A program made the position numbers and the translations under genes. A DNA stretch of 5,162 bases from a virus (taxonomy: Duplodnaviria > Heunggongvirae > Uroviricota > Caudoviricetes), in the IMG/VR virus record IMGVR_UViG_2531839661_000003; one strand, given 5' to 3'. Of the stretch, positions 1-5,162 are shown piece by piece (the first letter of the stretch is position 1; each line of letters begins with the position of its first letter). The notes below the pieces were generated by a model. It was given only the letters and a program-made list of their open reading frames with translations. It was not told the origin of the DNA and did not search any database.

Positions 1-492
1 GCCAGTATTGAACTGACGCCGGGCTATTTTCAGATAACGGTGGTCCCGCATCCTGCGGTGTATGACCCGACGGTACAGCATGAATTCTGGTTCTCAGAAA
101 AACGCATCACGGACACGGCACAGGTGGAAACCTCAGCCCGTTATCTGGGGACCGGCAGCCAGTGGAGCGTCTCCGGCCCGCACATTAAGCCCGGGAAGGA
201 TTTCTGGTTTTATGTGCGCAGCGTCAACCTGGTGGGGAAATCTGCGTTTGTGGAGGCCAGCGGGCAGGCCAGCAATGATGGTGAAGGGTATCTGGAAATT
301 TTCCGTGGGCTGATAGACGAGGCGCTGCTGGGGCAGGCACTGAAAGAGCGTATTGATGCGTCAGCCCTGCGTACTGAGGTCACGCAACTGGAAGAAGACA
401 TCCGCCAGCGGCTGGAGACGGATGTTGCGGAAGTGACCCGAAAAATCGGGAGCGGAAAACAGCCTCACGCAGCTGGTTGCGAAAAAGAATGA
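1..492 (+). CDS. J: Host specificity / central tail fibre protein J, internal portion; 5' end lies off-window and the frame ends prematurely at TGA 490-492
   Basis: Frame 1 is open from base 1, so the M at 40 in the ORF track is an internal GTG, not a real start. The translation ([14 protein letters not shown]...[10 protein letters not shown]...[17 protein letters not shown]...) closely matches the region of lambda gpJ preceding its C-terminal receptor-binding part, as I recall it. The reading frame continues in frame 2 (see next feature). Confidence 0.85.
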
Positions 493-517
493 GGACCAGA
501 CGCTGGCCATCGCGCAG

Positions 518-1540
518 GTGAGTCAGCAGGTGGACCGGGTGAGCAGTGAAATCACACAGACCGTCAGCCAGAGCACGGAGGAAAACGCCAGGCAGATAGC
601 GCAGGTCCGCCAGTACGTGGATGACAAAGGGAGTGAAATCACCTCGACCACGGATAAAAAGCTGGAAGACCAGAGCGCCACCATACAGCAGATACAGCAG
701 GTCCAGTCAGACACGAATGATGAGCTGGCAGCGCTGTACATGCTGAAGGTGCAGAAAACGAAAAACGGCATTCCGTATGTTGCCGGTATTGGTGCGGGGA
801 TTGAGGATGCTGATGGCCAGCCCCTGAGCAATATACTGCTGCAGGCGGACCGTATCGCGATGATTAACCCGGAGAACGGCAACACCACGCCGCTGTTTGT
901 GGCGCAGGGGAATCAGCTGTTTATGAACGACGTGTTCCTGAAGCGACTGTTTGCAGTGAGCATCACCTCGTCCGGCAATCCCCCGATGTTCTCCCTGACG
1001 CCGGAGGGCAGGCTGACGGCCCGCAATGCTGACATCAGCGGACATATCAGTGCGAACTCGGGCACGCTCAATAATGTCGTGATAGCGGAGAACTGTACGA
1101 TAAATGGCACGCTGAAAGCGGAGAACATTATTGGTGATCTTGTGAAATGTGCAGGGGTGGCTTTTCCGGTGGATGGTAGTTACCTTGCGAACGGTACACG
1201 AACGCTGACGGTGTATGACGATCACAGCTTTGACCGGCAGATTATAATCCCGCCGATAATCTATGTCGGGTCAAAACAGGAATCCCGCACCAGTAATGAC
1301 ATCTGGACAGAGTGCTTCCTGCATGTTGATCAGAACGGACGCCGGATTTATTCAGGCAGGTCAGTGGAAGAGCCGGGAATTTTCAGCGGGATCATCGATA
1401 TGCCAGCTGGCGGTGGTCATATCACCCTGAGTTTTACCGTGAGCTCACGGCGTCAGAATAACAGTTGGGGCAGTTCACGAATCAGTAACCTTCAGGCGAT
1501 AGTGGTGAAGAAAAACAGCGCGGGGATCAGCATCCGCTGA
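518..1540 (+). CDS. J: Host specificity protein J, C-terminal (receptor-binding) portion; frame 2 is open from 437, so the true continuation begins upstream of the listed GTG at 518
   Basis: The translation ([20 protein letters not shown]...[20 protein letters not shown]...[22 protein letters not shown]...[13 protein letters not shown]...[16 protein letters not shown]...) is near-collinear with the lambda gpJ C-terminus ([35 protein letters not shown] motifs) from memory. Stop TGA at 1538-1540. Confidence 0.85.
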
Positions 1541-1738: not shown

Positions 1739-1879
1739 ATGTCGCAAAAACCGTTAAAAACCACCGTGATTTGTATCACGGTAGTGCTCATTACCTGGAT
1801 CACCCACAGTTCACTGTGCGAGTTCCGGTTCCGGATAGCGGGCGCGGAGATTGCGGCGTTCTTACAGTGTAAGCGGTAA
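1739..1879 (+). CDS. Hok/Gef-family type I toxin-like small membrane protein (46 aa), not in the supplied ORF track
   Basis: ATG 1739 is preceded by AAGGAG (1725-1730) with an 8-nt spacer; stop TAA 1877-1879. Translation: MSQKPLKTTVICITVVLITWITHSSLCEFRFRIAGAEIAAFLQCKR. It has an N-terminal hydrophobic helix (VICITVVLITW) followed by the Hok-family signature SLCE[FI]R[FY]R...E[IV]AAF[LM]; compare plasmid R1 Hok ...[21 protein letters not shown] and chromosomal HokA ...SLCEL...ELAAFLACK (recalled, not searched). Confidence 0.6.
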   Translation: MSQKPLKTTVICITVVLITWITHSSLCEFRFRIAGAEIAAFLQCKR

Positions 1880-2023: not shown

Positions 2024-3736
2024 ATGGCAGTCAGAATATCGGGTGTGCTGAAGGACGGGGCCGGTAAGCCGGTACCGGGATGCACGATAGAGCTGAAAGC
2101 GCGACGCACAACGGAGACGGTGATTGTCACCACGGTGGCGTATGGTCAGCCGGGGGAAACCGGCAGTTACAGTATGGATGTTGAGCCGGGGTTGTACCGG
2201 GTGACGCTGAACACGGAAGGGTACGCGCCGTCATATGTGGGTGACATTCTGGTGAAGGCGGACTCTGCACCGGGAACGCTGAATAAATTTCTGATGGACC
2301 TGGAGGACGCACAGTATTACCCGAAAGCCCTTGCAGAGCTGGAAGCGGTGGCCGCGGAAATCCTGAAACGTGCGGAAGCGTCAGCGGCGAGTGCAGAGGA
2401 AGCGAAGAAACGGGCAGAGAATGCGCGGGGACCGAAGGGGGATAAGGGAGACACCGGGCCACAGGGTATTCCCGGGCCAAAAGGCGATACCGGCGAGCGT
2501 GGGCCAAAGGGTGAGCGTGGTGAGACAGGCCCACAGGGGGTACAGGGGCCACGGGGTGAAACCGGACCCGTGGGACCGCAAGGAGAGGCGGGTATTCAGG
2601 GGCCTGCTGGTCCTGCGGGCCCGCGAGGCGAAACCGGAGCCAGAGGCGAAAAAGGAGAGCCGGGAGATCCCGGAGGACCTCCGGGACCAAAAGGTGACAC
2701 TGGCCCCAGAGGGGAGCCGGGGCCTCAGGGCCCGGCAGGTCCGAGAGGACCAGCCGGAGAGAGAGGGCCGCAAGGATTGCAGGGTGTGGCAGGGGAGAGA
2801 GGCGATACAGGTCCGGCTGGTCCACAGGGCGCTACCGGCCCCAGAGGACCACAAGGGGAAAAAGGGGATAAAGGTGACCCCGGCCCGGCAGGCCCTGCCG
2901 GTGAGCGGGGGCCGAAAGGTGAGCGAGGTGCAACGGGCCCCGTGGGGCCGCAGGGGGCGACGGGGCCAAAGGGCGATAAAGGCGATAAAGGCGAGAGAGG
3001 AGCGCAGGGGCCAGCGGGTCCGGCAGGGAAGTCTGCCAGTCTGGATGATATTGCCGACAAGGAGGCGTTTATTCGTAAGCTTGGGGTGGCAAGAGCTTAC
3101 GGGCGTGATCTCAAAACAGGAGAAGGGGAGTGGACGACAGAAGAGTTCATCAACTGGCTGAAATCACAGGGTGCTTTTGAGGGTCCTTACTGGGTAATGA
3201 CCACGACGCGGTTACTCAACAGTAACCGTGTGATCACGGATGTGGATACTGATTTGGGTAAGAAAAAAATCACCCTGAGAGGATGCGCCATTGAAGTGAT
3301 GGGGTCATGGGAGAATGCGATAGTCCGGATCAGCGCAGGTGATGACCGGCCCTGGGATATGTTTTATGGCACGGACTGCACCTGCGTGGTCAGCGGCAGT
3401 ATAAAGAGCTATGAGTGGCGGTTTAACTACACTTCCATCAGACGCCCCTCAACAGCGAAACTGGATGTGAACGGATGGGAGCGGGATGAGGCAACAGGAA
3501 GAATACGGCAATGGGGGCAGAAACAAGTTGTCCGGCCAACCAGTGACGGAGACACACATACCATCTATTTCCCGATAGCTTTTCCGTCAGCGGCGCTGAA
3601 TGTCATTGTATCACCGGTAGGTTCACCGGGAAATTTCACGGGGTATGCCCTTTCAGAACCGTTGCTGAAGTCGGTAATACTGACGGTCAGTAAGGACACA
3701 TACGGGCTGTTTTACTGGGAGGCCATTGGCTACTGA
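2024..3736 (+). CDS. stf: Side tail fibre protein (Stf) with lambda-Stf-like N-terminal domain, collagen-like Gly-X-Y tract and divergent C-terminal domain
   Basis: N-terminus [28 protein letters not shown]...[10 protein letters not shown]...[10 protein letters not shown] is near-identical in pattern to the lambda Stf N-terminus ([28 protein letters not shown]...YSMDVEYGQY...SQPGTLNDFL, recalled). Residues ~136-337 are uninterrupted GXY triplets apart from one break. Strong SD upstream; stop TGA 3734-3736. Confidence 0.9.
2429..3034 (+). repeat. Collagen-like Gly-X-Y triplet-repeat coding tract inside stf (28 triplets, one extra Pro, then 39 triplets)
   Basis: The translation runs [25 protein letters not shown]...[12 protein letters not shown] with Gly at every third residue. 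The single register break is GGP-P-GPK at nt ~2675-2689. A local 9-bp tandem duplication GGCGATAAA occurs at 2972-2980 and 2981-2989. Confidence 0.85.
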
Positions 3737-3966: not shown

Positions 3967-4644
3967 ATGATGGTAAATATTAAAAACTTCATCTGGTATA
4001 CGCCGGAAAATCCGGATGTTCCGGGGGCGATGTACCTGAAATCAGAGGATGGTCAGGACTGGTATGAGTGTCTGCCCTTGTTTTCGCCGGATACGCTGAA
4101 AGTGGTTTATAACAGTGCAGGGGTTATCACTGATATCAGCAGGGACGTACAGGCGCTGTGGCCAGCGAATCAGAGTATTGCGGAGGTGGCGGATACGGAA
4201 GAAAACCGCAAAGCTGATATCTCGGGGCGGTGGGGCTTTGACGGGGAGAAAATCACGGATCTGCTGACCGCGGAGAAAGCGCGCGGGATGAAGGGCGATG
4301 AAATAAACGCGTGGCGTAATGCGATGGAGGCGGCGAACTACACGTTTGAGCACAATGGCCGGAAATGGGACTACGGGAAGTCAACGCAGACGCGTCTTGA
4401 GCCATCGGTGGCGGCAGCGAAAGCGGGGAAACTGCCGGAGGCGTTTTTCTGGACGGATGCGGAAAACAATGATGTGCCGGTGACAGCAGAAGAGCTTATT
4501 GCGCTGAGTGAAGCGGCAGAGCAGGCGATGTTCACCAAAGGGATGGAAATCCACATTCGCCAGCGCACCATGAAGAAGGACCTGGAATCGCTGAGCAGTG
4601 CGGATGAGATCCTGGCATACAGGGTTGGCTGGGCACAGGAATAA
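3967..4644 (+). CDS. tfa: Tail fibre assembly protein (Tfa), Mu gpU / P2 gpG-like N-terminal domain; alternative upstream GTG start at 3907
   Basis: MMVNIKNFIWYTPENPDVPGAMYLKSEDGQDWYE...PDTLKVVYNSAGVITDISRDVQALWPANQSIAEVADTEENRKADISGRWGFDGEKI parallels Mu U / P2 G (...LYSDDGKNWYE...ADTLKMVYDHNGVI...[32 protein letters not shown], recalled). ATG 3967 is chosen by homology; the frame is open from 3868 and the ORF track uses GTG 3907. Stop TAA 4642-4644. Confidence 0.75.
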   Translation: MMVNIKNFIWYTPENPDVPGAMYLKSEDGQDWYECLPLFSPDTLKVVYNSAGVITDISRDVQALWPANQSIAEVADTEENRKADISGRWGFDGEKITDLLTAEKARGMKGDEINAWRNAMEAANYTFEHNGRKWDYGKSTQTRLEPSVAAAKAGKLPEAFFWTDAENNDVPVTAEELIALSEAAEQAMFTKGMEIHIRQRTMKKDLESLSSADEILAYRVGWAQE

Positions 4645-4913: not shown

Positions 4914-5162
4914 TCAGTGAATAAACCAGTCGTCCGCTGTTTCCCAGACATTTTGAAGTGTTTCTTGTACAAACTCTTGCGCGGATTCTTTATCCACGGC
5001 TCTTAAAATAGTGAGTCCATCATTGCTGGCAGATTTAACGATCACTTCTACATCGTCATAACGCTTACTGATTTGTCGCAGCATTTCTTGCTGTAGGGCA
5101 GGAATAGAACCTTTTGGCATTTTGCTGATTTTTTCTTTAGCGATACAGATCTCAATTCGCAT
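4914..5162 (-). CDS. DinI-family (DNA-damage-inducible protein I-like) protein, 82 aa; start codon is the last three bases of the window
   Basis: Minus-strand translation [82 protein letters not shown] aligns along its length with E. coli DinI (MRIEVTIAKTSPLPAGAIDALAGELSRRI...ETWESADDWF, recalled). Its promoter would lie beyond base 5162. Confidence 0.8.

Follow-up and report, generated by a model that had tools for sequence, protein, structure and literature searches.

A two-base loss splits a lambda-type J gene in a prophage contig of Escherichia coli 3.3884 and probably reflects a consensus error

The stretch of DNA analysed here (5,162 nucleotides in total, hereafter the window) corresponds to bases 2-5163 of contig AFAC02000002.1 (GCA_000215285.2), which belongs to the 2011 JCVI draft assembly of the Stx2-positive E. 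coli strain 3.3884 of serotype O153:H-. The contig starts 1 nt before the first base of the window and begins inside a tail gene of the lambda J type, 447 nt before the lesion described below. Therefore, the first ~715 codons of J lie outside the window, on some other contig. The features found within the window are listed in Table 1. A chromosomal kinase gene, annotated as btsS in the closest relative, comes after the DinI-like gene.

Table 1. Coordinates of features in the window
Feature	Position	Strand	Basis or remark
J, upstream part (tip attachment protein, central tail fibre)	1..450	+	frame 1
Lesion in J	448..455	+	alignment with intact J genes
Out-of-frame end of frame 1, 13 residues, premature stop TGA 490-492	451..492	+	translation
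J, downstream part	452..1540	+	frame 2; natural stop TGA 1538-1540
hok/gef gene, 46 aa, Pfam HOK_GEF	1739-1879	+	Pfam
Tail fibre with collagen-like region, 570 aa	2024-3736	+	
ORF, 70 aa	3746-3958		
DUF4376 protein	3970-4644		
DinI-like gene	4914-5162	minus	

Three-frame translation of the window showed that J is carried by two reading frames in succession. Frame 1 is J-like from base 1 down to its premature TGA, while frame 2, closed by a TGA at 434-436 and open from 437, is J-like up to the natural stop of the gene. Frame 3 is stop-rich throughout the J region. Frames 1 and 2 are open together only within 437-489, an overlap of 53 nt that includes the two A-runs of the region (A5 at 441-445 and A4 at 456-459). 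In frame 2, the first candidate starts are GTG 518 and GTG 530; the depositor's separate downstream CDS uses the latter (530-1540, 336 aa, EII59600.1), and no record of the 340-aa product of the GTG 518 ORF was found on look-up. That a frame change with the effect of +1 splits J, as claimed in a preliminary description of this DNA, is thus confirmed by the J-like translations on both of its sides.

Both halves are real J sequence and not chance ORFs. When the frame was repaired, a product of 513 residues was obtained which contained Pfam domains Ig_J_second (residues 2-101, 126.7 bits against a cut-off of 27), Phage_Tail_Tip (residues 229-356, 86.4 bits, cut-off 22) and Ig_GpJ_C (residues 396-512, 130.9 bits, cut-off 26.2). 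The same set of domains is present in lambda J, and is borne as well by the two J ORFs of the depositor. Solved chains of lambda J matched the repaired fragment with E-values of 6.5e-138 (8iyk_J) and 1.7e-139 (8xcj_Z). In these alignments (E ~1e-138), lambda J residues ~719-837 and 839-1131 correspond to fragment residues 2-120 and 223-512, respectively. Lambda J lacks the intervening ~100 residues (121-222), which separate the last Ig-like domain from the central fibre and are present in J of PhiR49_2 and of STEC prophages; the lesion falls into this inserted segment, at about residue 150 of the fragment. The upstream part of J thus comprises the last Ig/FN3-like domain (Ig_J_second) and the start of the inserted segment, and the downstream part comprises the remainder of this segment, followed by Phage_Tail_Tip and, at the C-terminus, the receptor-binding domain Ig_GpJ_C. 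As for gene order, J stands behind tail genes M, L, K and I in three relatives (L001, L002 and L007), consistent with its place after L, K and I in lambda, whereas the contig of the window begins inside J. Domain content, homology to solved structures and gene order in relatives all assign the gene to the lambda-type J genes. It is a lambda-type J by descent, although as deposited it does not form the single ORF of ~1,130-1,230 codons typical of the class; intact full-length relatives are single ORFs of 1,228 aa.

Alignment with intact J homologues, which the preliminary description had proposed as the way to pinpoint the indel, did so. In comparison with gpJ of P15-385 and RM10466, window positions 445-460 read ATCGGGAGCGGAAAAC where the intact genes have ATCGGGGAGGCGGAAAAC, and the difference narrows to positions 448-455, with GGGAGCGG in the window and GGGGAGGCGG in the intact genes. 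The site is therefore within 437-489, as had been deduced from the overlap of the two frames. The nature of the lesion is, however, different from what had been suggested. Instead of a 1-bp insertion in the A5 run, or alternatively in the A4 run, there is a net loss of 2 bp, GGGG being reduced to GGG and GG to G in ATCGGG[G]A[G]GCGG. A glutamate codon GAG is hereby stripped of both its Gs, and its middle A is left as base 451. In agreement with this, positions 1-1540 of the window are matched by 1,542 bases in the closest complete genomes. Removal of one A would arithmetically reopen the frame, but both A-runs have the same length in the window and in the intact homologues, and only the two Gs differ; an insertion in either run thus deserves practically no credence. 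The junction peptide RKSGAEN that would follow from such an insertion is likewise absent from the homologues compared, which have RKIGEAEN or RKIGKAEN. The intact protein reads ...EVTRKIGEAENSLTQ... at the site.

The two Gs were not lost as one block. A contiguous 2-bp deletion of GGGGAGGCGG cannot yield GGGAGCGG, and BLAST scored two separate gaps. The lesion thus changes the lengths of two homopolymers, both of them short (G4 to G3 and G2 to G1). A single contiguous deletion of AG would suffice if the ancestral codon had been AAG (Lys), as in PhiR49_2, and we considered this possibility, but it was unsupported: the 98-mer repaired with AAG had no exact match, whereas the one repaired with GAG was found exactly in 78 complete-genome records. 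As no complete E. coli genome pairs AAG with the flanks of the window, while these 78 records have GAG, GAG was the ancestral allele. Merging of GAG and AAG paralogues in the assembly was considered too, and was rejected, because dropping of the ambiguous columns would, on paper, lead to a loss of 1 bp and not of 2 bp. A search for a templated or quasi-palindromic source detected the mutant 7- to 10-mers neither directly nor as reverse complements in the vicinity; GGGAGCGG recurs just once in the window, at a distance of 3 kb from the lesion. Comparison of the entire 5,162 bases with the nearest complete genome gave 29 substitutions, and the lesion was the sole indel site.

We then asked whether the lesion is shared. 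Among 5,426 complete E. coli genomes, of which 725 contained ~1,060 homologous places, no exact match to a 96-mer with the lesion was detected, the best matches being 96/98. No exact match to the 96-mer was present in phage records either; the J segment occurs there only in PhiR40_1 and PhiR49_2, in both cases within a single-frame J gene. A 34-mer across the lesion had no match in metagenome or species-representative contigs, and the product of the 336-aa downstream ORF was found only in the source assembly. The lesion is thus private to one assembly, and a second assembly of strain 3.3884 was not found. Furthermore, window positions 193-1540 (1,348 nt) are identical to the intact J of another E. 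coli locus (L008) except for the lesion, without a single further substitution, from which it follows that no decay has taken place after the break. Neither presence of the lesion in independent assemblies or isolates nor further decay, either of which would characterize a pseudogene, was therefore observed, a result with which a very recent mutation is still compatible.

The position of the lesion in the assembly is also of relevance. In P15-385, the closest complete genome, two prophages carry J copies without any difference over a stretch that reaches from ~250 nt upstream to 1,250 nt downstream of the point corresponding to the window start (L001 5001-6250 versus L015 4081-5330). As these copies are identical across the site, the lesion lies within an exact multi-copy repeat, and the break of the contig inside J is explained by this repeat.

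The loss of two bases is unprogrammed and affects an otherwise intact lambda-type J gene. In our opinion, it is most likely an error in the consensus of the 2011 draft of E. coli 3.3884 rather than a mutation of the strain (probability roughly 0.6). The consensus at the lesion would then rest on few or mixed reads, with the lengths of two G-runs under-called, and the real gene would be a single J of 1,228 codons reading ...RKIGEAENSL.... This is indicated by two separate single-G contractions only 2 nt apart, by their location 447 nt from the contig end and inside an exact repeat, by confinement of the lesion to this assembly, by the identity to an intact J over window positions 193-1540 with no later decay, and by the lack of a nearby template for a single templated mutation. 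In addition, the window has a T at base 6, at a distance of 7 nt from the end of the contig, where C is present in 4/4 of the relatives compared; this may point weakly to a poor consensus there, or may be a mere strain difference. The remainder of the sequence does not, however, look like a poor one. The window has no other indel relative to the nearest complete genome, and 112/112 homopolymer runs of at least 4 nt are as expected, including T8, A7 and T7, even though a general homopolymer-error process should strike long runs first. Similarly, 13 kb of the contig were aligned to the sister locus L007 (the lesion site is outside this alignment), and indels occurred only in an intergenic hairpin.

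Such a clean surrounding consensus with correct long homopolymers speaks for the other explanation of some weight, namely that the J copy of strain 3.3884 truly lost 2 bp very recently, in a complex event or in two successive single-G deletions. Real decay in related prophages and in the same strain points in this direction as well, and counts against a consensus error. Two sister prophages (L007 and L010) carry an independent in-frame internal deletion of ~2.6 kb in J (L007 7521-9517 and L010 355-2351), by which the N-terminal 71 residues are fused to the rest of the gene at window-equivalent position 669; the junction shows an overlap of 9 bp, and an ORF of 361 aa is left. Since it is shared by two independent assemblies, this deletion is a real lesion in the prophage lineage; L007 is located at the same chromosomal site, beside the same histidine-kinase (btsS-like) gene, and the 570-aa tail-fibre protein is identical in L007 and L010. 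On the source contig itself, a neighbouring chromosomal gene for a 666-aa SWIM-domain protein (L009 9223-11223) is interrupted, in comparison with L007, by two in-frame nonsense substitutions (Q230* and E477*). As only substitutions and no indels are involved, it seems to be a genuine pseudogene in 3.3884. On the other hand, two losses of single bases 2 nt apart would be an unusual spontaneous event, no direct or inverted template is available nearby, the lesion occurs in no other genome searched, no further substitutions have accumulated against intact J over 1,348 nt, and the site lies near the contig end within the exact repeat. A genuine null mutation is thus quite conceivable, but it is not the explanation we would choose. 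If it is real, the J protein ends after ~865 residues with a nonsense tail of 13 residues, the remainder of the inserted segment is lost along with the central fibre (Phage_Tail_Tip) and the receptor-binding domain (Ig_GpJ_C), and the prophage is left without adsorbing particles made from its own J.

The preliminary description had correctly named a defective gene or a sequencing error as the realistic choices. It had also left room for programmed frameshifting, and this has not withstood the comparison with homologues. The short overlap of frames 1 and 2 with its A-runs is the one feature that might be taken for a functional split, in which either a programmed +1 frameshift takes place or the products of the two ORFs, synthesized independently, assemble into a two-piece J. 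Nevertheless, every homologue inspected at the site (L001, L002 and L008 of E. coli genomes, and L004 of phage PhiR49_2) is read in a single frame, as are the intact 1,228-aa relatives, and the sequence of the window was encountered in none of the ~1,060 places in 725 genomes; as judged from these sequences, programmed frameshifting is excluded. By reading of positions 437-492, we found no slippery heptamer for a -1 shift of the lambda G/GT kind and no AGGGGG-like element upstream, nor is there, for +1, a CUU-UGA site preceded by a Shine-Dalgarno sequence as in prfB, the context of the frame-1 stop being GAA-TGA-G. With 4-5 nt, the A-runs fall short of what known transcriptional slippage requires. 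A product shifted at any point past base 451 would retain as many as 13 incorrect residues, and separate synthesis of the downstream part is disfavoured by the lack of a Shine-Dalgarno-like sequence, as read from the sequence, before both GTG 518 and GTG 530. We consider a functional split to be next to impossible. Hardly more plausible, and still very improbable, is a split that is real and tolerated. Here, tRNA-Lys might slip at a low level by +1 from AAA 484-486 onto AAG 485-487, just before the TGA, which would give rise to a J of full length in which 12 or 13 residues of the inserted, non-conserved segment are replaced; alternatively, the N-terminal tail-tip part and the C-terminal fibre/receptor-binding part might be made separately and still assemble. 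A milder form of the same idea, which we rate just as low, would be recurrent loss of the receptor-binding part of J in this lineage. If true, the frameshift reported here, together with the independent 2.6-kb deletion, might hint at selection against the adsorption function.

Regardless of whether the consensus error that we favour or a true mutation is responsible, the break in J is ordinary and represents nothing new in kind. The closest counterparts of the gene are intact J genes of STEC prophages (for instance WP_215741539.1 of P15-385, WP_000514886.1 of RM10466, and the J of GCA_019078105.1). These show nucleotide identity of 98-99.6% and are followed by the same downstream module of hok, collagen-like tail fibre, 70-aa ORF and DUF4376, but possess GGGGAGGCGG and a single ORF of 1,228 aa, unlike the window with its GGGAGCGG and two ORFs. 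A comparable situation is known from stf of lambda PaPa, a tail-fibre gene that is divided by a small indel into two adjacent ORFs, annotated as orf-401 and orf-314 in lambda, whereas relatives have a single ORF. Hendrix and Duda are said to have traced this split, in 1992, to a 1-bp deletion in lambda PaPa. The lesion in stf is verified and affects a dispensable side tail fibre, while that in the window is unverified and affects the essential J. Defective lambdoid prophages of STEC and EHEC offer another parallel, represented by the two sisters with the in-frame 2.6-kb deletion in J, and tail-gene defects of such kind were reportedly described in many EHEC prophages by Asadulghani and colleagues in 2009. 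In contrast to such defects, the 2-bp loss in the window is private to one draft and is not shared by independent assemblies.

The break is of little consequence. Should it be an error, nothing more follows than that an intact J is misrepresented in the database entry, where it appears as two CDS calls, one of them EII59600.1. Should it be real, a Stx2-positive O153 strain harbours, beside the btsS-like kinase gene, a lambdoid prophage devoid of its own adsorption protein; this state is common for STEC prophages, and another resident prophage could supply a compatible J in trans. What is gained in either case is a corrected lesion, a loss of 2 bp in GGGGAGGCGG instead of insertion of an A with a +1 effect, along with the exclusion of programmed frameshifting.

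Several observations were made on the surroundings of J. The hok/gef gene sits between J and the tail-fibre gene, i.e. at the place where lom follows J in lambda. An Rfam scan of the whole window, hok/sok-type RNAs included, yielded nothing at gathering thresholds. By eye, an inverted repeat rich in G and C (CCGCAGGCCGG...CCGGTCCTGCGG) with a T7 run behind it can be recognized on the plus strand at 1979-2010, just 5' of the start of the fibre gene at 2024; it looks like a putative intrinsic terminator that separates this gene from hok. In the relative L001, tail gene I and J are separated by ~900 nt (1948-2855) that contain no annotated gene and seem, by eye, to be internally repetitive, consisting of several similar units, each with an apparent AAAAAATCCCGCAG...CTGCGGGA hairpin and a GAAATGTGAA-AAA-TCAGAATTTTTATTCAC motif; this region matched no Rfam family at gathering thresholds.

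The tail fibre is composed of a prophage tail-fibre N-terminal domain, ~200 residues of collagen-like Gly-X-Y repeats and a gp53-like C-terminal domain. Its collagen-like part (~2420-3030) varies more than any other region when the two module copies of P15-385 are compared; window-equivalent positions 2750-2999 account for 54 differences. The J-hok-tail fibre-DUF4376 module as a whole was encountered in at least three chromosomal contexts, namely with btsS and DinI, with potB and YkgJ, and with hyaA and tRNA-Ser. In the latter two contexts, likeness to the window stops at ~4905.
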